A stretch of 64,000 nucleotides of DNA from Sinosporangium siamense (GCF_016863435.1 NZ_BOOW01000056.1:16717-80716); one strand, 5' to 3'; positions 4,390 through 33,351 are shown, counted from the first letter of the stretch. The notes: a model not told the origin generated them from the sequence alone. Translations and numbers: made by a program.

Positions 4390-4413
4390 GATCCCCTCCT
4401 CCCCGCGCCGAGT

Positions 4414-5199
4414 CTATTCCCAGCGAAACCAGCGAACCGCGATGAGCGAGCACCCGGCCGCGTAGGCCGTCAAGATGACGAGAGGGAGGATAGACGGGAA
4501 ATTCCCCTGGTAGGCGTCCTGGAATGCACGCATGCCCGCGCCGAGCGGGGTGTAGTAGCTGATGGTCTGCAGCACCGGGGGCATCTGCGGAATCGGCACC
4601 CAGAGCCCGGCGAAGAACATCAACGGGAAGAACAACACCGTGCCGATCGCCGAGGCCGGACCGCGCCCGGGCGCGAGCGCGGTGATCAGCAGGCCGATCG
4701 AGAGCAGCGCGGCGGCGGCGAGCAGCCAGGCGACGGCGAAGCCGAAGGGGTTCCGCGGCAGGTCGACGCCGAAGCCGAGCCCGGCCACCGCGAGGAAGAG
4801 GATCATCGCGACCAGCGCGATGGCGAAGCTGGCCACGAGCTGGGCGGTGAGCACGCGGGCCGGCCCGATCGGCGTGGTCCGCAGGCGCCGCAGCACGCCG
4901 CTCTCCCGATATCCCGCGAGCGTGATCGGCAGGGCGGCCGTGGCCAGAATGGCCAGGTTGAACAAGATCAGGACAGGCACGTAGAAGTCGAAGTACGTCA
5001 GGCCGCCGCCGCCCTCCACGGGTTCTCGCAAGGTGGGGATGGCGCCGAGGATGATCAGCACGATCAGCGGGAAGCCGACGCCCCAGAGGGGGGCGACCTT
5101 GTCGCGGAGGCACAACTTGCTCTCGGCCTTGATGAGCCGCCACGTCGCGGAACCGTGATCGGCGGTGACGGGGACGGCGGCGGCGTTCGGGGCTGGCAC
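4414..5199 (-). CDS. ABC-2 type transporter permease
   Basis: Six hydrophobic segments. Sits immediately downstream of the ABC ATPase gene, the typical exporter arrangement. Confidence 0.75.
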   Translation of the reverse strand: MPAPNAAAVPVTADHGSATWRLIKAESKLCLRDKVAPLWGVGFPLIVLIILGAIPTLREPVEGGGGLTYFDFYVPVLILFNLAILATAALPITLAGYRESGVLRRLRTTPIGPARVLTAQLVASFAIALVAMILFLAVAGLGFGVDLPRNPFGFAVAWLLAAAALLSIGLLITALAPGRGPASAIGTVLFFPLMFFAGLWVPIPQMPPVLQTISYYTPLGAGMRAFQDAYQGNFPSILPLVILTAYAAGCSLIAVRWFRWE

Positions 5200-5235
5200 G
5201 GGTGCGGCCTTCTCTCTGCTGCGGGGGTCGGATGC

Positions 5236-6150
5236 CTAGTGGGGATCGAGGCGTTTGCCGGTCAGCTGGACGAACGCGTCCTCCAGGCTGGCCTGCTCGA
5301 CGCGCAGGCGATGGGCCACGATCTGGTTGCGGGCGAGTACGGCGGTGACGGCGTTGAGCGCGTTGTCGTTGCCGGTGACGACGACCAGCTCGCCCCGGCG
5401 GGTGACGCTGGAGACGTCGGACAGGCTCGTCAGCAGCCGGTCGTCCAACGGCGCGGACGGCCGGAACTGGATCCGCTGCTCGATGCGGGCCCGTTCGGTC
5501 AGGCCGGCCGGGGTGTCCACCGTGACGACGCGGCCGGCGTCGATCAGAGCCAGCCGGTCACACAGCCGCTCGGCCTCCTCCATGAAGTGGGTGACCAGCA
5601 GGATCGTCACCCCACGGGAGCGCACGCCCTCGATCAGGTCCCAGGTGTCGCGCCTGGCCTGCGGGTCGAGGCCGGTGGTGAGCTCGTCGAGGATCGCCAC
5701 CTTGGGGTTGCCGACGAGCGCCAGCGCGATCGAAAGGCGCTGCTTCTGGCCGCCGGACAGCTTGGCGTACCTGGTCTTCGCCTTGTCCGCCAGGCCGAGG
5801 CCGTGCATCAGCGCGCGCCAGTCGGCCGGCTGGGGATAGAAGGAGCTGTAAAGCTCCAGGGCCTCGGCGACCTGCAGCCGCTCGGGGAGCTGGCCGGCCT
5901 GCAACTGGACGCCGAGCCGCCGGGTCAGCTCGGCCCGATCCCGGAGGGGGTCGAGCCCGAGCACCGTGATCTCGCCCCGGTCGGGCGTGCGGAGGCCCTC
6001 GATGCACTCCACGGTCGTGGTCTTGCCTGCCCCGTTCGGGCCGAGAATCCCGAAGATCTCACCCTCCTGAACGGTGAGCGAGACATCGTCGACCGCGACC
6101 TTGTCCTCATAGCGTTTGTGGAGGTTGCGTACCTCGATCACTGGTGGCAT
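5236..6150 (-). CDS. ABC transporter ATP-binding protein (DrrA-like)
   Basis: Walker A GPNGAGKTT, ABC signature LSGGQKQRLSIA, Walker B ILDELTTGLD. The ORF track starts it at 6177; the MPPVIEV start at 6150 is more likely. Confidence 0.9.
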   Translation of the reverse strand: MPPVIEVRNLHKRYEDKVAVDDVSLTVQEGEIFGILGPNGAGKTTTVECIEGLRTPDRGEITVLGLDPLRDRAELTRRLGVQLQAGQLPERLQVAEALELYSSFYPQPADWRALMHGLGLADKAKTRYAKLSGGQKQRLSIALALVGNPKVAILDELTTGLDPQARRDTWDLIEGVRSRGVTILLVTHFMEEAERLCDRLALIDAGRVVTVDTPAGLTERARIEQRIQFRPSAPLDDRLLTSLSDVSSVTRRGELVVVTGNDNALNAVTAVLARNQIVAHRLRVEQASLEDAFVQLTGKRLDPH

Positions 6151-15442: not shown

Positions 15443-15515
15443 GGGGCTATGGCGCAGTTGGTAGCGCGCCTCCATGGCATGGAGGAGGTCTGGGGTTCGA
15501 ATCCCCATAGCTCCA
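15443..15515 (+). tRNA. tRNA-Ala (anticodon GGC), copy 1
   Basis: 73-nt cloverleaf: 7-bp acceptor stem with G3:U70, anticodon loop AUGGCAU (anticodon GGC), TΨC arm GGTTCGAATCC, discriminator A. Confidence 0.9.
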
Positions 15516-15529
15516 CTTATTTTTACAGA

Positions 15530-17550: not shown

Positions 17551-18284
17551 CGTCCACCCCCTTGACGGTTATGGTTGCGGTGCGTGAGATGTGATGTCAA
17601 ATGAGTGACTAAGAACCCCTGCTCAGGGGCGGGGGAGATCGGTAAGACCCCGGAGTACAACTGATCGACGAGCGGCATCACCCGCGGATAGCAGAACAGC
17701 GACGACCCGACGCCGAGGATCGACGGCGAGTCGACCACGAGAGGCAACTCCGCGAAGAGGAACGGCAGCGCCGCCTCCCGCCGCCACCGCTCCAGCCCCG
17801 CCTCGCCCACCACGGCCCCCACCGCGCAGACGCAGTGCTCACGGAAGCCGGCGTCGCTCGTGTACAGCGACTCCACACGTGCCCGCAGCGCGAGGTAGGC
17901 CGCGTCGCCCGCCAGGTCGCCCCACGACAAGACCGGCACCTCCCCAGGCGCGACGCCGAGGACCGCGAGCGCCCGCCCCACCCGGTTGCGCGTGTTGCCC
18001 GCCGCCGCCCGCGCCTTCGCCGGCGCCCTGCCCGGCTCGCAGCCTTTCGCCACCAGGGTGCCCGCCAGCTCCGCGGGCCCCGGCACAAGCACACCGACCT
18101 TGCCGAACGTGCGCACAGCCCACCTCAGCAGCCCCGTCACGACTTGCTGGCTGAAGTAGCCGTTCAAGGCGCTGACGCCGATCAACACGTGCTCTCGCCG
18201 GGTGTAGATCTCCGAGCACCGCCCGCTCAACGGCCGGACCGCGACAGTGTCCATGTTCCTGAAAAATACCAAGCACCTCGCCAA
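17547..18284 (-). CDS. Cyclodipeptide synthase (CDPS, AlbC-like, aminoacyl-tRNA dependent)
   Basis: EHVLIGVSALNGYFSQ aligns to AlbC EHALIGISAGNSYFSQ. ELPLVVDSPSILGVGSSLFCYPRVMPL aligns to AlbC EAPLFADSPGVFSVPSSVLCYHIDTPI. Length ~245 aa. Start uncertain (18284 or internal M at 18254). Confidence 0.75.
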   Translation of the reverse strand: MARCLVFFRNMDTVAVRPLSGRCSEIYTRREHVLIGVSALNGYFSQQVVTGLLRWAVRTFGKVGVLVPGPAELAGTLVAKGCEPGRAPAKARAAAGNTRNRVGRALAVLGVAPGEVPVLSWGDLAGDAAYLALRARVESLYTSDAGFREHCVCAVGAVVGEAGLERWRREAALPFLFAELPLVVDSPSILGVGSSLFCYPRVMPLVDQLYSGVLPISPAPEQGFLVTHLTSHLTHRNHNRQGGGR

Positions 18285-18360: not shown

Positions 18361-18433
18361 GGGGCTATGGCGCAGCTGGTAGCGCGCCTCCATGGCATGG
18401 AGGAGGTCTGGGGTTCGAATCCCCATAGCTCCA
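18361..18433 (+). tRNA. tRNA-Ala (anticodon GGC), copy 2
   Basis: Identical to copy 1 except one D-loop base (AGCTGG vs AGTTGG). G3:U70 present. Confidence 0.9.
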
Positions 18434-18496
18434 CTCGAGGCAAGGGCGACGAGGGTCGGCGGAAAACCGCTGATCGGCGTCGCCTTCGTCATTGTT

Positions 18497-23070: not shown

Positions 23071-24144
23071 ATGGGAATCGCCTCTACTACCCGTCGTAAG
23101 GCCCTTGCCACCGCCGTCGTCGCCGCACCCTCACTGCTGGCGCTGACGTTGGTGCCGGGCTCGGCGTATGCCCACGGCACAATGAGCAACCCGCCAAGCA
23201 GGACGTGGGTCTGTTTCAACGAAGGTCCGGAGAACCCGAAGACCGCAGCGTGCAAACAAGCCGTCGCGATCGGCGGCACGCAGCCGCTGTACGACTGGCA
23301 CGAGGTCAACATCGGGGACGCCAACGGACGCCATAGACAGCTCATCCCCGACGGCAAGCTGTGCAGCGCCGGACGTGACAAGTATCGCGGCTTCGACCAG
23401 GCCCGAGCCGACTGGCCGACGGCGGCGCTGCCGTCGACCGGGCAGCACACGTTCAACTACCGCGCCACGGCTCCCCATCGGGGAACCATCGAGCTGTACG
23501 TCACCAAGGACGGCTACGACGCCACCAAGCCACTGAAGTGGTCCGACCTGGAGGCGCAGCCGTTCCACCGTGCGACCAACCCGACGCTCGTGAGCGGTGC
23601 GTATCAGATGAACGCCAAGCTCCCGAGCAAGAGGGGACGCCACCTCATCTACTCCATCTGGCAGCGGAGCGACAGCCCCGAGGCTTTCTACACCTGCTCT
23701 GACGTCGTCTTCGGGGGCGGCGGCGGCACCGACCCGACACCGACCCCGACGCCCACGGGGTCCCCCACGGCCTCGCCCACGGCCTCCCCCACGGGGTCGC
23801 CCACGGCATCGCCCACGGCCTCCCCGACCGGGTCGCCGACCCCGACCCCGACTCCCACGCCCACCGACCCGCCCGGCGGCGGGCATGGCGACATCAACGC
23901 CGGCGTCGGTGTGCGGCCCGCGATCGTGCGCACCGGAGAGTCCGTCGCGGTCAGCGCGCTGTGCGGCGGCAGTTCGGTCAAGAGCATCTCCTCACGCGCC
24001 TTCAACCCGCAGCGCGTGAACTCCCCCAACCCGGCCTCGAACTGGTATCCGACGTTCAAGGCCGCCCGCCAGGGCAAGCACACCGTCAGCGTCTTCTGCG
24101 CCAACGGCGGCAGCGCCCGCACCGTGCTCACCGTCACCAGGTGA
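23071..24144 (+). CDS. Secreted lytic polysaccharide monooxygenase (AA10 family) with Thr/Pro-rich linker and unassigned C-terminal domain
   Basis: Signal peptide ending ...GSAYA followed directly by HGTMSNPPSR (N-terminal His of the mature enzyme). Body resembles AA10/CBP21. (TPTP/SPTA)n linker. C-terminal ~110 aa with two Cys pairs is not an obvious CBM2. Confidence 0.75.
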   Translation: MGIASTTRRKALATAVVAAPSLLALTLVPGSAYAHGTMSNPPSRTWVCFNEGPENPKTAACKQAVAIGGTQPLYDWHEVNIGDANGRHRQLIPDGKLCSAGRDKYRGFDQARADWPTAALPSTGQHTFNYRATAPHRGTIELYVTKDGYDATKPLKWSDLEAQPFHRATNPTLVSGAYQMNAKLPSKRGRHLIYSIWQRSDSPEAFYTCSDVVFGGGGGTDPTPTPTPTGSPTASPTASPTGSPTASPTASPTGSPTPTPTPTPTDPPGGGHGDINAGVGVRPAIVRTGESVAVSALCGGSSVKSISSRAFNPQRVNSPNPASNWYPTFKAARQGKHTVSVFCANGGSARTVLTVTR

Positions 24145-24795: not shown

Positions 24796-26121
24796 GTGGG
24801 CGCAGACGACGTACAAGCGAGTCCGCCACTGAGCCGAAAAAGCGGACCAATAGCAAGATTCTTCGTGTTTTCCAGCGGCGCGGACGCCGCGATCCTCGAT
24901 CAATGCCCGACTGTGGAACGCACGCGATATGCCGGACTGGGCGGCCTCGTGCTGACCACGGCGATCATGGCGGGTATCGCCATGACGGTGGCCTTGACCC
25001 TCGCCTTCCGCGCACCACTGGCGGTCGCGGTGGGGGCGGGCGCGTTGTGGTGCTTAATCATCTTCAATCTCGACCGATGGCTGGTCTCCGGCTATCGCCC
25101 GCAGACATCCAGACGCGGAAAGATCATGGCCGTCGGGCCGCGCATTCTGCTTTCCGTGGTGCTGGGACTCACCATCTCAGAACCGCTCGTGCTGCTCATT
25201 TTCGAGCCGGAAATCCGCGCAGAAGCCGTCGAGAACCGGGTCTCCGCGCAGAACGCCGCGGACGAGCGTATCGCCGGCAACACCGGCGCACAGCGCATCG
25301 AGGCCCTCAGAAAAGAGATCACGGATATCCGCGCGCAGAACACCGGCACCAATCCGGCCGGCGAGCTCGGAAAACTCATCCAGGAGCGCGACGAGGTCCA
25401 GAGGAACTGGCAGAGCAACGAAAAGGCACTGGCCGAGGCCAGGAACAAGGCTTTCGGCGAGGGAAACGGCACCGCGGGCAGCGGCGTGCCCGGCGCGGGG
25501 CCGAGATATGAGGAGCTCCGGGACGACGTCGCCACGCTCGATAGGAAGGCGGCCGATCTGAAGGCCGAGGAGGCGGGACTCGACCGGAGGATCGAGAGGG
25601 CGCGGCAGGCCGAGGAGACCCGCGTCAAGGAGCGGGAGGACGAGATCAGACGGCTCAGCGCCGCCCAGAACTCCCGGGCCGCCGAGCAGGCCGAGGCCAT
25701 CGGGCGCAGCGACGGGCTCGTGGCCCGCATCAACGCGCTGTTCACCCTGGGTGAGAAGCACACGGCGGTCTTCCTCGCCCACATCGTGCTCGCCCTGCTG
25801 ATCCTCCTCATCGACCTGCTGCCGATCACCGGGAAGATCCTCATGAGCAGCGGCGGCAGGAGCTCCTACGACAACCTCCTCGCCGCCAGGGAGATCGAGA
25901 TCGCCGAAGGCGCGGCCCTGCGTGTCCTTGAGGCCCGCGAGCGGACCACCCTGGCCACGATGAGGGCGGGCGAACGCAAGCGGGCCGCCCGCGACATCGC
26001 CCGCATTCACATGGCCGACGAACGCTACGAGCAGGAGCAGAGATCACGCCGGCGCCGCCGTTCCCTGGACGAGCGGGTGCCGTTCCAGGAGACGGGCGAG
26101 TGGAACGGACTGACACCGTGA
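24796..26121 (+). CDS. DUF4407-like membrane protein: two N-terminal TM helices, long coiled-coil, C-terminal TM
   Basis: TVERTRYAGLGGLVLTTAIMAGIAMTVAL...LWCLIIFNLDRWLV N-terminus. ~250-aa Glu/Arg/Ala-rich coiled coil. C-terminal hydrophobic helix (FLAHIVLALLILLIDLLPI). Preceded by an AT-rich putative promoter region at 24600-24800. Confidence 0.55.
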   Translation: MGADDVQASPPLSRKSGPIARFFVFSSGADAAILDQCPTVERTRYAGLGGLVLTTAIMAGIAMTVALTLAFRAPLAVAVGAGALWCLIIFNLDRWLVSGYRPQTSRRGKIMAVGPRILLSVVLGLTISEPLVLLIFEPEIRAEAVENRVSAQNAADERIAGNTGAQRIEALRKEITDIRAQNTGTNPAGELGKLIQERDEVQRNWQSNEKALAEARNKAFGEGNGTAGSGVPGAGPRYEELRDDVATLDRKAADLKAEEAGLDRRIERARQAEETRVKEREDEIRRLSAAQNSRAAEQAEAIGRSDGLVARINALFTLGEKHTAVFLAHIVLALLILLIDLLPITGKILMSSGGRSSYDNLLAAREIEIAEGAALRVLEARERTTLATMRAGERKRAARDIARIHMADERYEQEQRSRRRRRSLDERVPFQETGEWNGLTP

Positions 26122-27614
26122 CCGGCCCCGTGAACGGCACGCAGAGATCGGCCCGCCGCTTCGAGAAGGGTCCGGCCGACCGGCTGATCCACCTTGTCGA
26201 CCTGCCGAGCCGCATCCTGGTCGTGGAGGAGGGGCACCGGGTCGCCGTCCGGCACAACGGCAGGATCCTGCCCCGGCTCCTGCGCCCGGGGGTGCACATG
26301 CCGCTGTTCGGGCTGCCGCTCCTCGGCAACCTGGAGGTGGTGGTCTTCAGCGACCGCAAAGCCCGCCAGGCGGGCAGGGTCGCCAAGGTCCGCCTCCAGG
26401 ACGAGGCCTTCGCCGACTTCTCCTACGTCGCCTGGGTGCGCCTCGACGCCTTCACCGACGAGGAGGTCCTCGACTGGTTGCGGGAGTTCGAGACGACCGA
26501 CCTGTCGGACACCCGGCTGCTGAGCCGTGAGCTCGACTTCCGGGTGCGCCGGTCGTTGTCCCGCCTCACGGTGGCGCAGCTCCGGCACCGGGACTTCGAC
26601 CTTCCGGCCCACCTGGAGCGGGATCTCACCGGGACCCGCGGCGGCTTTCTGGAGATCGTCGCGATCGAGCAGGCCGCGGCGGTGGGGAACGTCACCGCGC
26701 TGGAGGACGACCTCGCCACCCGGCACCGGGTGCAGGACGACCTCTACCGGCGGGCCGAGCGGCTGGCCGGCGCCGTCGGCGACCTGCGGCCGGCCACCGG
26801 CGACGACCTCCAGCTCGCCCTGGTCGACGGCCGCCTTGAATGGGCCGACCGGGAACTCGGCGAACTCGCGAGGCTGTGCCGTACACACGGTCTGACCGAC
26901 CCCCGCACTTCGGCGGCGCTCGCGCGGTGCGCGGCGACCGTCGTCGGCGCCGCGCTGCTGCTGCGCCCCGGCGACGCCGGGCACCGGCGTCGCTCACAGG
27001 AGATGATCATGTCCTCGCGCGCCTGGGAGGTGCTGCTGCGCGTCCGCCCCACCGTGGGCGCGGCGGTCACTGAGGCCCTGCGCGACGACGACCCCGAGGC
27101 GGCGCTCCCCCTCCTCGGCGCGGTCTTTGGCCCACTCCGCACGACGGGCGACCCCGCCCCGAGCCGCCCCTGGGAGATCCCCTCCCACCTGGTCAGATCC
27201 CCGGCGGCGCAGCGGGCGGCGGCGGAGCTGACGGCGCCTGTGGCGGGATGCTGGGTCGGCGCCTCCCCCATGCCAGGGGAGGAGATGCTCTTCCTCGTCG
27301 CCCCCGACCCGGGCGCCGTACTGAAGGAGCTCAACGGCGACCACCTCGACCTCGTCGAACGGGCGGGGGCCGACCGGCTCCTCGTCCTCCCCCTGGAGGC
27401 CGGCCACACGTCCTGTCTGCCCGCGTGGTTCTATGCGATCGTCGGCCACATGCCCGGCCGCGTGACCGCCGCGGCCGCGGCCGACGGCACCGTGCTGCTC
27501 GGCGTCTCACCTGAGATCCGCGCCCGGGACGTGCCGAGAACCGCCGTCGCCGCCTTCGCCGGCGCCCTGTGCGGCCTCACCGGCGCTCCCGGGGTGGCCT
27601 TCGTCTCCACCTGA
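26118..27614 (+). CDS. Hypothetical protein, possibly with a divergent SPFH/band-7-like N-terminal region; translationally coupled to the DUF4407-like gene
   Basis: Start (ATG 26100 or GTG 26118) overlaps the upstream stop. ILVVEEGHRVAVRHNGRILPRLLRPGVHMPLFGLPLLGNLEVVVFSD resembles the SPFH core. Rest is alpha-helical and Ala/Arg-rich. Confidence 0.45.
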   Translation: MTGPVNGTQRSARRFEKGPADRLIHLVDLPSRILVVEEGHRVAVRHNGRILPRLLRPGVHMPLFGLPLLGNLEVVVFSDRKARQAGRVAKVRLQDEAFADFSYVAWVRLDAFTDEEVLDWLREFETTDLSDTRLLSRELDFRVRRSLSRLTVAQLRHRDFDLPAHLERDLTGTRGGFLEIVAIEQAAAVGNVTALEDDLATRHRVQDDLYRRAERLAGAVGDLRPATGDDLQLALVDGRLEWADRELGELARLCRTHGLTDPRTSAALARCAATVVGAALLLRPGDAGHRRRSQEMIMSSRAWEVLLRVRPTVGAAVTEALRDDDPEAALPLLGAVFGPLRTTGDPAPSRPWEIPSHLVRSPAAQRAAAELTAPVAGCWVGASPMPGEEMLFLVAPDPGAVLKELNGDHLDLVERAGADRLLVLPLEAGHTSCLPAWFYAIVGHMPGRVTAAAAADGTVLLGVSPEIRARDVPRTAVAAFAGALCGLTGAPGVAFVST

Positions 27615-27621
27615 CACACGC

Positions 27622-30600
27622 TCAGGCGCCTTCCGCCGTGCGGCGGAAGGCGATCAGCTCCCCGGAGGCGTTGACCACCAGGAGGCCGCCCGGAAGCGCG
27701 GTGAGGCCGGCCACTCCTGCGGGCACGCGGAACACGTCGGCGAGCCCGCGGCCGGCGCAGTCCCAGACCCGCACGGTGCCCTCGCCGTCGCCGCTGAACA
27801 CGACCGGTGTGCCGGCCACCTCACCGGTGGCCAGCGCGGTGACCGGGGTGTCCTGCGACCCCAGCGGCACACCACCGGGCCCCCACCAGATCCGGTACGG
27901 ATCATCCGGCGTCACCCTGGCTCCCGCCCCCGAGACAGCGGACCCGGCCGGCGGTCGCGCGGGCGACCCCTCCGGCGGCACACCGTCGCGGGCTCGCACG
28001 ACCAGCTCACCGGCCGCGTGCTCAAGGGCCAAAAGGTCGTCGCCGAGCACCTCGACCCGGTCGATCCGTACCCCGGCGCGCTCCCCGGCCGACGCGGGCG
28101 ACAAGGCGGGCGCCGCGGGACGGCACGAGCTGAGGTCCCAGACGTGCAACACACCCGAGTTGCCGCCGGTGACCGCGACCAAATGCCCGTCGACGCGGGT
28201 GACCTCCACCGCGTGCACCCCGTGCCCCGGGTGCACCGGCGGGTGGGACTCCCTGGCGATCGGGCCCCCGGCTCCGAGGTCCCACGTCACCACCTTGCCG
28301 TCGCGGCCGACCGTGACGGCGACCGGCCGCCCGTCGATCAGCGTCGCCGCCAGCGACTCCGCGGAGTCGGGGCCGGCGCCGATCCCGGCGGCAAGGGTGA
28401 GGCCGGAGCCGAGCTCCCACACCCGCAGCGTGCCGCCGCCCCCGGCGGTGACCGCCAGGGAGCGTCCCGAGGCCGTCAGGCAGATCGCGGCGTGCGCCGA
28501 CCCCCGGTGCGCGGTGCGGTGGGCGCCGACCTGTTCGCCGGTGCCGAGGTCGGTGACGCACACCCGGCCGTCGCGCGCGGTCGTCACGGCGAGGTCGCGG
28601 CCCCCCGCCCGCGCGCAGGCCACCGAGGTGATGTAGCCGAGCCTGCTGCCGGCTCTCTCCTTCAGGACCTCGCCCGTAGCCGCGTCGCGCACCTGCAACC
28701 AGCCGTCGCCGCTGGCCAGCAGGGCGACCTCCCGCCCGCCGAGCGAGGTGCGGGCCAGAGCGGGGAAGAAGCCCTTGGCCGACCACGTGCGTACCGCCCG
28801 GCCTCCGGCCAGCTCCCAGGCCTTGACCTGGCCGTCGTCCCCCGTGGTGATCGCGACCGGGTCGCCGTCGCGCAGCGCGCAGTCCAGCGCGAGGATCCTG
28901 CCGCGATGCGTCGGAAACGGCGGCCACAGGCGCCGTTCCCTGAGGTCCCAGACCGACAGCCAGCCTTCGCCGTCGGCTGCCACGACGAGGCCCGCCGCAC
29001 CGGACACCGCGCGTAGCAGCGCCACCCGCTGCTTCTTGCGGCTGCGGGGCAGCTCGAAGTCGCCTGGAGGTGGGGAGTGCCGCGCCGTCCCGTCCGGCCC
29101 GTGGGTGTCCCCGGGCGGACCGGCGACCCCGACCGACCAGACGGGCCGCCATGCCAGCGGCGGCGCCCCGGGCGGATGCGCGGCCCGTCTCGCCAGCTCG
29201 GCGAGGCCGGCGCGGGCCGCGCCGAGGGCGAGCTTGCTCCGGCGCTCCTCCAGCGAGGTACGGCGAGGCCGGCCGGCTTCGGCCACCACCCGGGCCAGGG
29301 TCTCCCCGCCCAGCGCGGCGACGGCGGGCAACCACCGGTGGTCGGCGCGGAGCAGAAACTCCGGGTCGTCCAGCAGGTCCGCCGCACGACCGGCGGCCTG
29401 GGCGTGCTGGAGCGCGTGGCGGATCAGGTATGGCTCCGCGGCCTCCCAGTCGCGGGCGCCGGGCGGCCCGAGGGCGGAGAGGAGCGCAGGGAGGTCCGCG
29501 TCCGCCCCGGATGTGCCGGTCGCGAGGTGGTCGACCAGCTCTTGGTGGAAAAGCCGGTAAAGCGCCGCCCCGCCGCCGGCCTCCGCGGACTGCCGGAGGA
29601 AGACACTGCCCGCGCGGAGGGTCTTCAGCAGTTCGTCGAAGCCCGGCTCGCGGTCGAGGCCCGCCCGCGCGGCGACGATCCGGCTCAGCACCCCGATCGG
29701 CATGCCCTCCCCCTTGGCCTCGGCGAGCACCGACAGGCAGGCGCGCAGCAAGGGGTGGGCCGCGTGCCACGCCCGGAGGTAGACCGCGAGCACCTCGGGC
29801 AGCGTGCGGGGCACGTCCACCGCGAACCGCCTGGCCTCTGCCGTGTCCCTCAGCGGGGAGCCGCTCGTGGAGTCGATGAGGAAGCCGGTGTAGAGGCCCG
29901 CGACAAGGAACTCGCCGCACTCCCTGCGGGCGCGCAGGCCGGTCAGCGCCTGGGCGATCTCCGCGGCGAAGGCGCCGCGGACGTCGCCGTGCGGGCGGTA
30001 TTCCGCGACGTCCTCCAGCAACCCGAAGACATATCTCGACAGGTCCTTGCGCAGGACCTCTCGGTCGACGGTGTCGAGGTCGGTGAGGGTGCCGAGAGCG
30101 CGGGCCCGCCCGGCGATCGGCTGGTATTCGCGGTAGTCGCGGCACCCCACCAGCACCCTGGCCGCGTGGCGCCCGTCCGGGCGAGGTGTGCTCGACAGGG
30201 GGAGGATGAGCTCGTTCATGACGGCCACACCGTCGTCGGCCTCGTCGAGGGCGTCGACCACGATGAGCGGGGGCGCGGCCAGGCCGAGGATGCGCCCGAT
30301 CAGCTCACCGGGTGTGGTGCTGGGCGGCAGGGAGAGCTGGGCGCCGAGTTGCTCGTTCACGGCGGCGACCACTCCGGCCGGGCCCCGGTGGCGGGCGTAG
30401 ACCGCGGCCACCCCGCCTCCTGTGGGCGACGGCAGCGGCGAGACACCGTCCAGCAGCGGGAGGGCGGCCTCGTAGAGCGAGGGGTGCGCCGCGCAGGCGA
30501 GCACGCTCACCAGGGCGGACTTTCCGCTGCCCGGGCCGCCGGTGACCATGCCGAGGTCCCCCGGGCCGCGGCCGCTCAGCCACGGCGTCAGCCGTACGAG

Positions 30601-31479
30601 CTCGTCCCTGCGGCCGGTGAACCGCCCGGCACGGCCGCCCGCCTCGCCCACTCCGATGCCGGACAGCAGGTCGAGGAAGTGCCGGTCGACCGGGCCGCCT
30701 TCCCGGGAGATCCGCCCCGGGGAGCGCGGGCGCGCGCCCGCGGCCGGGCCGCCGTTCCTGCGGGCGGCGCCGTTGGGGAAGAACGGCGGCACGAAGACGT
30801 CCTCGCTGGAGTCGAACGCGGTGGAGGCCACCTGCTGCTTCCACGCGCCTCCGGCGTGCGCGGCCCGGATGACGTGCCTGCGCACCGCCCTCGCGACGTC
30901 GGCGAACGGCACGTGGTCGCCGGCGGGATCCGCGTCGAACTCGCCTGCGGCGATGGAGCCGAGGACGGCGGCGAGCGCCTCGGTGAACCGCCCGTCGAAG
31001 GCCGGCCGGTCCGGCTGGCAGGCGGCGATCACCCAGGCGCGGTTGCCGGCTCCCGCCGTGCCGTAGTGCCAGGGCAGTCTGGCCAGGGCGCCGGAGTAGC
31101 AGAGGTCGAGCAGGAAGAGCGTGCGCGGACGGCCGGAGCCGAGCTGCGCGAGCTTGAGCCAGTGCTCGATGTCGTCGACGCGCTCGCCGTCGCTGCCGAG
31201 CGCGTAGACGATGCCGCGGGCGGCCTCGTCGCCGTGCGTGAGCAGGTGGAACACGAGCACCTGGTCCGGCCCGGCCCGGGTCAGCTCGCCGCGGACGATC
31301 TCACCGATGGCCGCGGAGGTCATCGGGCCGGTGTGCATCGCGCACTCATATCCGAGGGACCGCATCGCGGTCGCCAGAGTCTGTGCCCGCTCGACCGCGA
31401 ACGGCAGGTCGTCCCAGGTGTCGCCGGCGAACCGGGGAACCGCGATCAGGATCGCGCGTGGTAGTGCGAGAGAGCTCAT
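27622..31479 (-). CDS. Caspase-like protease – STAND (NACHT-type) NTPase – WD40 beta-propeller multidomain protein (1285 aa)
   Basis: N-terminal His/Cys dyad motifs (VFHLLTHGD ... LFLLDLCYSGA), metacaspase/orthocaspase-like. Walker A MVTGGPGSGKSALVSVLA, Walker B LIVVDALDEADDG. C-terminal ~550 aa with repeated WD-type blades (LSVWDL, VKAWEL, LRVWEL, VVTWDL, LHVWDL, VRVWDC). Start ATG overlaps the flotillin stop (ATGA 31476-31479). Confidence 0.85.
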   Translation of the reverse strand: MSSLALPRAILIAVPRFAGDTWDDLPFAVERAQTLATAMRSLGYECAMHTGPMTSAAIGEIVRGELTRAGPDQVLVFHLLTHGDEAARGIVYALGSDGERVDDIEHWLKLAQLGSGRPRTLFLLDLCYSGALARLPWHYGTAGAGNRAWVIAACQPDRPAFDGRFTEALAAVLGSIAAGEFDADPAGDHVPFADVARAVRRHVIRAAHAGGAWKQQVASTAFDSSEDVFVPPFFPNGAARRNGGPAAGARPRSPGRISREGGPVDRHFLDLLSGIGVGEAGGRAGRFTGRRDELVRLTPWLSGRGPGDLGMVTGGPGSGKSALVSVLACAAHPSLYEAALPLLDGVSPLPSPTGGGVAAVYARHRGPAGVVAAVNEQLGAQLSLPPSTTPGELIGRILGLAAPPLIVVDALDEADDGVAVMNELILPLSSTPRPDGRHAARVLVGCRDYREYQPIAGRARALGTLTDLDTVDREVLRKDLSRYVFGLLEDVAEYRPHGDVRGAFAAEIAQALTGLRARRECGEFLVAGLYTGFLIDSTSGSPLRDTAEARRFAVDVPRTLPEVLAVYLRAWHAAHPLLRACLSVLAEAKGEGMPIGVLSRIVAARAGLDREPGFDELLKTLRAGSVFLRQSAEAGGGAALYRLFHQELVDHLATGTSGADADLPALLSALGPPGARDWEAAEPYLIRHALQHAQAAGRAADLLDDPEFLLRADHRWLPAVAALGGETLARVVAEAGRPRRTSLEERRSKLALGAARAGLAELARRAAHPPGAPPLAWRPVWSVGVAGPPGDTHGPDGTARHSPPPGDFELPRSRKKQRVALLRAVSGAAGLVVAADGEGWLSVWDLRERRLWPPFPTHRGRILALDCALRDGDPVAITTGDDGQVKAWELAGGRAVRTWSAKGFFPALARTSLGGREVALLASGDGWLQVRDAATGEVLKERAGSRLGYITSVACARAGGRDLAVTTARDGRVCVTDLGTGEQVGAHRTAHRGSAHAAICLTASGRSLAVTAGGGGTLRVWELGSGLTLAAGIGAGPDSAESLAATLIDGRPVAVTVGRDGKVVTWDLGAGGPIARESHPPVHPGHGVHAVEVTRVDGHLVAVTGGNSGVLHVWDLSSCRPAAPALSPASAGERAGVRIDRVEVLGDDLLALEHAAGELVVRARDGVPPEGSPARPPAGSAVSGAGARVTPDDPYRIWWGPGGVPLGSQDTPVTALATGEVAGTPVVFSGDGEGTVRVWDCAGRGLADVFRVPAGVAGLTALPGGLLVVNASGELIAFRRTAEGA

Positions 31480-32924
31480 GCGTCGCCGGTGGAACCGGCA
31501 TCACCTTCCCCACGGGCGGACTGCGGCGGGCCGGGCTGCTGCCCGGCGGTGACGGCGGGCGGGACCAGCGCCGAGGCGAGACCGAGAGACGGCATGGCGG
31601 AGACGCCGCCGTTCCCCAGAATCGTCCGGACCATCTCCATGATCGGCAGACCGACCTGGGTGAGGGTGCTGAGCACACTGTTGGTCTCGCCGCCCGCGCT
31701 CTGGATGACGTGCTGAAGGTTCGGCAGCTCGACCTTGGCGGCCTTGGCGATCTCCGGGAGGTTTTCCGCGAGGGTGAGCAAGACGTACTGCTCGGCCTTG
31801 GCCGGGTCCATCGCGGCGATCTTCCCCTGGAGTTCGATGCCCTTCGCCTGGGCGCTCTGCAGCAGCCTCGCGACCTCCAGCTCGTTGAGCTGCCGGGTCT
31901 TGCGGACCTCGGCGGCGTTGATCTGGTCGGCCTCCCACGCCTTCAGCTCTATGCGCTTCCGCTCGACGATGTCGTCCCGCTCGGCTCGCTTCGCGGCGAG
32001 CTGCCTTTCCAGCTCGGCGTGTTTCAGCTCGCTTTCTGCCCGCTGCTGACGGAGCACCGCCTCGAATTCGGCTTGCGCCCGTTTCCGTTCGGCCTCAAGC
32101 TGCTCCTTGAAACGCTGTTTGTCGGCGTCGCTCCTGGCGAGCTCGCGTTCCTGCGTCTCGCTGCGCTGCCGGAGGGCGTATTTCTTCTCGGCAGCGTCGG
32201 CCATGGCCTGCTCCACCTCGACCTCGTAGGAGCGCTCGGCCTTCTCACGCCGCAACTTCGCGTCGATCTCGGTGGCCCGGCGGAGTTCCTCGGCGTGGCC
32301 GTCGTGGTCGTCGATCCGGGTGATGCCCACTTTGTCGACGACGAGCCCGCGGAGGTTGAAGTCGTGCTCCAATTGCTCCCGCATATGCTCGATCACGCTG
32401 GTCTGGTCGGAGACCAGCACCTCGAAGTCGATGTTGCCGATCACCGAGCGGACCTCGCTGCTGATGATGTCTTCAACCGCCTGAGCGAGCCCGGCGGGGT
32501 TTTTGAGATATCTCAGCGCCGCCCGCTGGATGAATTCGCGGCTCTCGCCGACGCGATAGCTGACCACGGCGTGCACGCCGACGCGAAGCATCTGCTGGGT
32601 CTCACATTGGACCGTCACCTTCGCGCTGCGCTCGGACAGGCTGATCTCGCCCTTATGGCGGCGCGGGGGCAGGACGAGCCTGGCCTTTCCCACGACCACC
32701 CGCAGGTCCTCTCCGTCCCTGCCGCTTCTGCCCACCACGCCGCCGGGGAAAATCAGGGCCGTTTGCGGGCCCGGGGTCTCCCACCAGCGTGAAACCACGA
32801 TGAGGGCCAGCACGGCTATGGCGCCGAGGCCGGCTAAGAGCCACGTCAGAAACACAGCACCTCCCGAGGGGAGAACAGGTGTGGCCGACCGCGCGGTAGT
32901 GCCCCCCGTTCTTGTTGAAATCAA
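31476..32924 (-). CDS. Flotillin-like SPFH/band-7 protein (N-terminal TM, SPFH domain, long EA-rich coiled coil)
   Basis: TM (VFLTWLLAGLGAIAVLALIVV). SPFH core (GEISLSERSAKVTVQCETQQMLRVGVHAVVSYRVGESREFIQRAAL). Flotillin-type coiled coil (KLRREKAERSYEVEVEQAMADAAEKKYALRQRSETQERELARS...). Preceded by an AT-rich promoter-like region at 32930-33100. Confidence 0.8.
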   Translation of the reverse strand: MISTRTGGTTARSATPVLPSGGAVFLTWLLAGLGAIAVLALIVVSRWWETPGPQTALIFPGGVVGRSGRDGEDLRVVVGKARLVLPPRRHKGEISLSERSAKVTVQCETQQMLRVGVHAVVSYRVGESREFIQRAALRYLKNPAGLAQAVEDIISSEVRSVIGNIDFEVLVSDQTSVIEHMREQLEHDFNLRGLVVDKVGITRIDDHDGHAEELRRATEIDAKLRREKAERSYEVEVEQAMADAAEKKYALRQRSETQERELARSDADKQRFKEQLEAERKRAQAEFEAVLRQQRAESELKHAELERQLAAKRAERDDIVERKRIELKAWEADQINAAEVRKTRQLNELEVARLLQSAQAKGIELQGKIAAMDPAKAEQYVLLTLAENLPEIAKAAKVELPNLQHVIQSAGGETNSVLSTLTQVGLPIMEMVRTILGNGGVSAMPSLGLASALVPPAVTAGQQPGPPQSARGEGDAGSTGDA

Positions 32925-33278
32925 TTATGGAAAACATTTAGGCGCGATGCGAGCAATGCGGCAGGCGATCATTAACTTCCGACAGGAAAGATCACACTCC
33001 GAATATCCCATAAAACGGGCAGAATACAATAATTCCCGGCAGGCAATCGAGAATCGGCCGCCGCGAAAAGCGCACACACGGGAGCAGGGGCGTACGGCGG
33101 AAGCCGGTGCATGACGATGCACGAGAGTGAATGCAAGACGCCGTGGACATGAGGGCCCGAACCTAGGCCGCATGCAAAACGCACGCCAGACTACACCTGG
33201 TGAGAGCGCATTGGGGGTAAACGACAAAGGGTGCCTGCGCCCTATGCGAACGCCGGCACCCGGGTGCACCACTAAATG

Positions 33279-33351
33279 TGGAGCTATGGGGATTCGAACC
33301 CCAGACCTCCTCCATGCCATGGAGGCGCGCTACCAACTGCGCCATAGCCCC
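33279..33351 (-). tRNA. tRNA-Ala (anticodon GGC), copy 3, opposite strand
   Basis: Reverse complement identical to copy 1. G3:U70 present. Confidence 0.9.

Follow-up and report, generated by a model that had tools for sequence, protein, structure and literature searches.

In bacteria, the apoptosome and the nucleotide-binding leucine-rich repeat (NLR) machines have their counterparts in caspase-STAND-WD40 proteins. Proteins of the SPFH superfamily build cages around proteases, as in the HflK/C-FtsH and stomatin-NfeD assemblies, and occur in pairs such as HflK/HflC, prohibitin-1/2 and flotillin-1/2; in plants, the SPFH proteins of the HIR group associate with the NLR RPS2. Bacterial gasdermin operons place a caspase-like protease, often fused to an NTPase and repeat sensors, beside a membrane-acting partner. 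Bacterial Apaf-1-like STANDs that combine an N-terminal caspase domain with WD40 sensors have been described (PMC13581612), and in multicellular bacteria Band7-like domains act as scaffolds of vWA-MoxR conflict systems (PMC7159879). Here we describe a locus of Sinosporangium siamense, contained in a stretch of 64,000 nucleotides (GCF_016863435.1, NZ_BOOW01000056.1:16717-80716, and also GCA_042429905.1, contig JBHLZQ010000066.1; hereafter the window, with positions counted from its first letter), in which a gene for a caspase-like/STAND NTPase/WD40 protein overlaps the end of a gene for an SPFH/flotillin-like protein. An earlier note on this DNA had taken these two genes as the module; a DUF4407 membrane protein and an orphan protein of 504 amino acids (aa), p504, proved equally conserved, and the unit is one of four genes in two tightly convergent operons, with SPFH followed by caspase-STAND-WD40 facing DUF4407 followed by p504 (Table 1).

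The SPFH gene precedes the caspase-STAND gene with a 4-nucleotide (nt) overlap in six independent loci, that is, for all six members of this SPFH subfamily whose context is known. These are the window, one contig recovered from two Logan runs (L002/L003), Streptosporangiaceae NEAU-GS5 (L084), Acrocarpospora catenulata (L085), Actinomadura graeca (L086) and a cut-off assembly (L092). The earlier note had raised the question of whether the adjacency recurs in other Actinobacteria, and it does. The ATGA junction, which the note had reported for the window, was read in all five loci with full sequence; for L092 the 4-nt overlap comes from the gene coordinates, and the 50 residues up to the contig end are clearly a caspase N-terminus. 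Gene order and orientation are constant wherever the contigs extend, p504 being present in each of the five loci that are long enough (the L002 contig ends after it) and DUF4407 in each of the four that reach it (window, L084, L085 and L086). The five cassette STANDs are monophyletic in a neighbour-joining tree (bootstrap 199/200), and the four proteins have diverged in parallel, with identities among the cassettes ranging from 62 to 29% for SPFH, 63 to 38% for STAND, 53 to 30% for p504 and 46 to 43% for DUF4407. Each genome has its own outer flanks: the window has tRNA-Ala, rsfS and nadD, the raw-read assembly has DUF1707, NEAU-GS5 has baeRF, CNNM and HxlR, A. catenulata has DoxX and a 2OG oxygenase, and A. 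graeca has RNase_T. Judged by these comparisons, the four genes have been passed on and moved together within a small clade of Streptosporangiales. As a separate observation, the genes immediately upstream of the cassette in NEAU-GS5 (L084 6439-7506, minus strand) encode a baeRF-family (eRF1-like) protein and an uncharacterised protein of 288 aa.

The extent of the pairing was also surveyed from the STAND side, with the alignment of the family as query against the species genomes of GTDB. The resulting 80 loci are a sample of a family with at least that number, and their upstream genes were checked by tblastn, by Pfam searches of 61 upstream open reading frames (ORFs) and with custom hidden Markov models (HMMs). 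An SPFH gene was found upstream in 1 of the 80 sampled loci, that of NEAU-GS5, and the relatives P0007, P0008 and P0011 (44-46% identity) are without one. Flotillin as a family-wide or obligate partner of caspase-STAND proteins was therefore rejected, given the single sampled locus and the nearer relatives that lack it; the obligate operon partnership that the earlier note had in view does not hold for the family. On the loci compared, the SPFH pairing is the trait of one small clade and is strictly conserved there. Neither p504 nor DUF4407 showed a general partnership with the STAND family across the same 80 loci by Pfam or custom HMMs, and p504 was not found elsewhere among 84 loci searched with custom HMMs. 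Partner genes of bacterial NLRs can thus be clade-specific and escape family-wide statistics. In the cassette-free relatives P0007 and P0008, the STAND gene is overlapped by a different downstream gene, encoding 262-289 aa with no Pfam match (Table 1), which may be another clade-specific partner.

The protein of 1285 aa is composed of an N-terminal caspase-fold domain, a STAND NTPase module and a C-terminal WD40 beta-propeller, and the caspase-like dyad, P-loop and Walker B motifs that the earlier note had pointed to are all in place: LLTHGD (aa 79-84), LDLCYSG (aa 124-130), GGPGSGKS (aa 314-321) and VVDALDEADDG (aa 407-417; the Walker B stretch, aa 405-417, is LIVVDALDEADDG). With the Pfam model Peptidase_C14 (PF00656), whose cut-off is 21.4 bits, the window protein reaches 19.9 bits (E 6.6e-4), and 11 of 26 homologues match the model at E<=0.01, the best at 2e-9. 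In the alignment of these 26 homologues, H82-G83 and D125-x-C127 are invariant. When the family profile of the N-terminal domain was compared with the PDB, it returned caspases and MALT1 only, at E values from 3.5e-4 to 1e-3, and its HG and LLD(L/M)C motifs fell on the catalytic HG and LLDMC of MALT1. An AlphaFold2 (AF2) model of the domain, built from a 21-sequence alignment, had a predicted local distance difference test score (pLDDT) of 88.9 and a predicted template modelling score (pTM) of 0.90; its top Foldseek matches in the PDB, at E ~3e-8, were MALT1, caspases 3/6/7/8/9 and the metacaspase Yca1, the best being MALT1 3v4o (E 2.6e-8, template modelling score ~0.6). The caspase fold, for which the earlier note had proposed a check by profile, and its His/Cys dyad are on this profile and model evidence real, and the assignment is firm at the family level. 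The D-x-C motif, like that of metacaspases and paracaspases, suggests a P1 specificity for Arg/Lys.

The NTPase is more closely defined by the family than by the window protein, for which the Pfam scores fall below the cut-offs (AAA_16, 23.4 bits versus 32.6; NPHP3_N, 19.8 versus 24.8). G314, P316, G317, G319, K320, S321, D409, D412 and E413 are invariant in the family alignment, and at E<=0.01 the 26 homologues match AAA_16 in 26 cases, NPHP3_N in 24 and nSTAND1 in 22. NB-ARC gave no match to the window protein at E<=0.1 and is outside the 25 commonest families of the 26 homologues. Because the family matches AAA_16, NPHP3_N and nSTAND1 and not NB-ARC, the NTPase is, by profile, a STAND of the nSTAND1/NPHP3_N (NACHT-like) type. 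An AP-ATPase/NB-ARC orthologue of Apaf-1, the class of protein that the earlier note had named, was accordingly rejected as an identity for this protein. For the C-terminal region the note had given six or more WD-type blades; we count about 10, over aa ~820-1285 and with VVTWDL among them, and the WD40 and beta-propeller models of Pfam match aa ~830-1120. This region has the lowest conservation in the family alignment. In homologues of the NTPase/helical core, the N-terminal domain is exchanged for a protein kinase (P0024, P0026, Nonomuraea), PP2C (P0023) or trypsin (P0041 and P0042), and the wider STAND family has several paralogues per genome, with one copy borne on a plasmid. Swapped effectors, expanded sets of paralogues and variable sensors are typical of conflict systems and NLR-like conflict proteins, and the nSTAND1 matches of most members count among the same hallmarks.

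The SPFH gene has a maximal ORF from a TTG at 32924 (31476..32924, minus strand). The GTG at 32855 is the most probable true start; it has GGGAGG 5 nt upstream and agrees with the NCBI call. The earlier note had called the product a classic flotillin, and part of this description stands: the protein has one N-terminal transmembrane segment (aa 1-25), a Pfam Band_7 match (54.5 bits versus a cut-off of 23.6) and an E/A/R/K-rich, heptad-like coiled coil at aa ~200-370, followed by flotillin-like C-terminal helices and a disordered P/G-rich tail. What does not stand is the word classic, since the NCBIfam FloT equivalog NF058507, with a cut-off of 700 bits, gives no more than 43.2 and the Flot domain (PF15975), which is matched in the next-nearest SPFH relatives, has no match in this protein. 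An exhaustive HMMER search of 1.84 billion cluster representatives with the SPFH query gave 4 clusters at E<=1e-30 and 595 matches at E<=1e-3. On these scores the SPFH partner is a tiny, divergent and private subfamily, distinct from canonical FloT, with members from S. siamense, A. catenulata, A. graeca and raw-read assemblies. Next in similarity come ordinary flotillins of actinobacteria, which combine Band_7 with Flot, lie in housekeeping contexts and have no STAND gene beside them; it is from such flotillins that the subfamily appears to derive. Upstream of the gene, the AT-rich, promoter-like stretch of the earlier note is borne out in its composition, with a G+C content of 57-59% at 32800-33199 compared with ~70-79% in genes, but a scan of the region upstream of the SPFH gene for the sigma-70 consensus found 0 sites. 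Terminator-like matches (6 found versus 2.6 expected) look like chance.

The facing operon begins with the DUF4407 gene (Pfam match E 5.3e-73), whose product has three N-terminal transmembrane segments, a long coiled coil and one C-terminal transmembrane segment, and which overlaps the p504 gene by 22 nt. The stop codons of the p504 and STAND genes are separated by 7 nt (27615-27621), so that the convergent transcripts must overlap and antisense regulation is possible; in A. catenulata, the calls for these two genes overlap by 47 nt. The window p504 has no match in Pfam, NCBIfam or PADLOC and no convincing transmembrane segment, and its single-sequence AF2 model is unusable (pLDDT 43.5). Two of the five orthologues, those of L084 and L085, match Band_7 at E 1.3e-4 (22.4-22.5 bits, below the cut-off of 23.6) over aa 19-146 and 19-166, and in the PDB the p504 profile came close to one entry only, its best match, the flotillin-2 SPFH domain (E 0.22). 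These matches hint that the N-terminal ~150 aa of p504 may be a second, very divergent SPFH domain. DUF4407 also occurs in a second arrangement: in two Lentzea genomes its gene lies directly upstream of a caspase-STAND-WD40 gene that has the same orientation but belongs to another clade (Table 1), an adjacency that we read as an independent link of DUF4407 to the STAND family. In these Lentzea loci, the STAND frame is free of stop codons over the ~300 codons that precede the homologous start. Among plasmids, there were 2 weak partial matches to DUF4407 with uninformative context. On the conjugative Rhodococcus plasmid pLW2 (L090 5121-8373), a DUF4407 protein of ~830 aa overlaps an NYN-domain gene, with PP2C and FHA genes downstream.

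On the genetics, the four cassette genes appear to function together; the SPFH and DUF4407 proteins are membrane proteins, and the caspase dyad and P-loop are intact. Our leading reading, to which we give about an even chance (probability roughly 0.5), is that the cassette serves regulated cell death or immunity as an NLR-like module associated with the membrane. The flotillin-like protein, anchored by its transmembrane segment and possibly joined by an SPFH-like p504, would form an oligomeric membrane platform or cage that keeps the caspase-STAND protein inactive, tethered or concentrated at the membrane. The variable WD40 propeller would bind a trigger, either a phage or other foreign protein or a damage signal, upon which the nSTAND1/NACHT-like module would oligomerise in a manner dependent on nucleoside triphosphate and bring the caspase domains together for activation by proximity. 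The protease would probably cut after Arg/Lys, because its motif is of the metacaspase/paracaspase type, and its targets could be the SPFH tail, p504, DUF4407 or other cellular proteins; in the end the membrane of the affected hyphal compartment would fail or its growth would stop. A more specific version, which we put forward tentatively and as a rather unlikely one, has a hetero-oligomeric SPFH cage of the flotillin-like protein and p504, together with DUF4407, gate the NLR-type caspase until a WD40 ligand releases the protease and the hyphal compartment is killed. If this were true, it would be the first coupling of SPFH proteins to an NLR in bacteria and would parallel both the caging of FtsH by HflK/C and the association of HIR proteins with NLRs in plants.

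Several observations weigh against a role in cell death or immunity or against parts of the mechanism. PADLOC-DB v2 gave no match for the STAND, SPFH or p504 proteins and only noise for DUF4407 (E 0.36-0.57); most of the surrounding genes have housekeeping or metabolic functions, with no defence islands; and the great rarity and narrow taxonomic range of the cassette fit lineage-specific physiology as well as they fit immunity. Two metagenome scans with the p504 and SPFH-subfamily alignments returned no relatives. Most STAND relatives work without SPFH, p504 or DUF4407, so that the cassette partners may be modulators and not core components. The SPFH matches of p504 are near-threshold, hhalign of p504 against the cassette SPFH alignment gave a probability of 0.9%, and a flotillin-specific HMM found nothing in p504. 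The substrate, the trigger and the physical interaction are all things that we infer.

Some of the same facts speak for the main rival, a non-immune, lineage-specific module of membrane homeostasis or development, which we regard as somewhat improbable. Here the SPFH protein or proteins and DUF4407 would organise a microdomain, and the caspase-STAND protein would be a regulated protease for the turnover of membrane proteins or the programmed dismantling of hyphal compartments, by analogy with HflK/C-FtsH or stomatin-NfeD quality control. Besides the lack of PADLOC matches and the chromosomal, non-island contexts beside housekeeping genes, the narrow and apparently vertical distribution in Streptosporangiales would suit such a module, as would the descent of the SPFH subfamily from ordinary actinobacterial flotillins. 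However, the location is different in every genome, which is unusual for housekeeping functions, most Streptosporangiales relatives are without the cassette, and in the wider STAND family effectors are swapped, paralogues have multiplied and sensors vary, as is typical of conflict systems.

The cassette could alternatively be two independent systems that travel together: a self-sufficient caspase-STAND-WD40 protein resembling Avs or bNACHT, and a separate, non-interacting membrane system of SPFH, p504 and DUF4407 concerned, for example, with membrane stress or exclusion. The facts that most STAND homologues are stand-alone genes and that DUF4407 is found elsewhere with unrelated neighbours, such as the NYN-domain gene of the Rhodococcus plasmid, are in keeping with this arrangement. 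We nevertheless judge it improbable, as 6 of 6 loci retain the 4-nt overlap between SPFH and STAND, even where protein identity has fallen to ~30-40%, neither the SPFH subfamily nor p504 was found without the STAND gene in the searches made, and DUF4407 is tied to the same STAND family in the Lentzea arrangement. An adjacency by chance or as a syntenic relic is already disfavoured and in our view very nearly negligible, since order, orientation and overlap are kept at 30-60% protein identity with all flanks different, even though the loci with an identified organism all belong to one order.

The surroundings of the cassette in the window include three tRNA-Ala(GGC) genes within 18 kb, at 15443-15516 (plus strand), 18361-18434 (plus strand) and directly upstream of the cassette (Table 1). 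The first and third are 100% identical, inverted and 17.8 kb apart, bracketing the cassette side, and this inverted pair could mediate an inversion. A tRNA-linked island was considered and is not supported: the bounds of the cassette showed no partial tRNA repeat, att-like direct repeat, integrase or transposase. A cyclodipeptide synthase gene lies beside the second tRNA-Ala copy (~17622-18254, minus strand). In the gene for a lytic polysaccharide monooxygenase of the LPMO_10 family (23071-24144, plus strand), a 12-nt tandem repeat of ~8 copies (23740-23838) encodes in frame a P-T-(G/A)-S linker, as translated by eye.

Table 1. Positions of the cassette genes, their domains and motifs, and related loci; positions refer to the window unless a locus is named.
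Feature	Positions	Strand	Remarks
DUF4407 membrane protein	24865..26121	+	418 aa; maximal ORF from 24796
p504, orphan soluble protein	26100..27614	+	504 aa; convergent with STAND gene
Caspase-like/STAND NTPase/WD40 gene	27622..31479	-	1285 aa
C-terminal WD40 beta-propeller	27625..29022	-	~10 blades; presumed sensor
STAND NTPase module and helical domains	29080..30624	-	aa ~286-800
Walker B, VVDALDEADDG	30229-30261	-
Walker A, GGPGSGKS	30517-30540	-
N-terminal caspase-fold domain (clan CD, C14-like)	30775..31479	-	aa 1-~235
Catalytic Cys127 codon	31099-31101	-
Catalytic His82 codon	31234-31236	-
ATGA, SPFH stop/caspase-STAND start overlap	31476-31479	-
SPFH/flotillin-like gene	31476..32855	-	459 aa; N-terminal transmembrane segment, Band_7, coiled coil
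Upstream intergenic region, tRNA-Ala to SPFH start	32856..33277	-	presumed promoter region
tRNA-Ala(GGC)	33278-33351	-	directly upstream of cassette
Lentzea DUF4407-STAND locus, L009	7609-9066
Lentzea DUF4407-STAND locus, L014	7158-9056
Overlapping downstream gene of P0007	L087 9927-10715
Overlapping downstream gene of P0008	P0008 JGI locus 4395-5264

The cassette is a compact and testable system of four genes in ~8 kb with which to ask whether SPFH microdomains gate a cell-death protease. It bears on the roles of the uncharacterised DUF4407 and p504 families, and also on the question of whether the membrane scaffolding of NLRs, as in plants, is older than the eukaryotes. We found no description of the cassette, the SPFH coupling, p504 or the DUF4407 link in the literature searched, in which subscription journals are thinly covered; the remark of the earlier note that it knew of no described flotillin-caspase-STAND system holds within that literature, although its obligate wording was not borne out.

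The cassette shares with the bacterial NLR-like STANDs (Kaur et al. 2020, PMC7159879; PMC13581612) the order of effector, NTPase and sensor, with an intact caspase dyad, P-loop, Walker B and WD40 region, as well as effector swapping and enrichment in filamentous actinomycetes. Those STANDs are described as single-gene sensors or with EAD/EACC adaptor partners, whereas the cassette has its own SPFH translational overlap and a convergent DUF4407/p504 operon, and lacks an NB-ARC signal. In the vWA-MoxR (VMAP) systems (PMC7159879), an SPFH/Band7 domain likewise acts as a multimerising scaffold in apoptosis-like conflict systems, but there it is fused to vWA, whereas here it is a separate transmembrane protein and the cassette contains no vWA or MoxR. 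The likeness to SPFH-protease assemblies (HflK/HflC-FtsH and the stomatin-NfeD STOPP operons) lies in an SPFH scaffold encoded beside a presumably regulated protease, and may extend, for HflK/HflC, to two SPFH paralogues, the transmembrane protein and p504. In contrast to these assemblies, the protease of the cassette is a cytosolic caspase fold carried on a STAND/WD40 protein and is neither FtsH nor a ClpP-like NfeD; no FtsH or NfeD gene was found in or beside the cassette in five loci. Canonical flotillins (FloT, FloA and YqiK) have the same N-terminal anchor, Band_7 domain and E/A-rich coiled coil, and the cassette protein departs from them in its FloT score, its missing Flot domain and its gene context. 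Gasdermin has no Pfam match in the SPFH, p504 or DUF4407 proteins even at lenient thresholds; gasdermin-protease operons and the plant HIR-NLR association are like the cassette in their logic, the plant parallel being a functional analogy only. The architecture of the caspase-STAND-WD40 protein is already known; its coupling to SPFH, the private subfamily of the SPFH partner, p504 and the link to DUF4407 appear in no paper of the literature searched.

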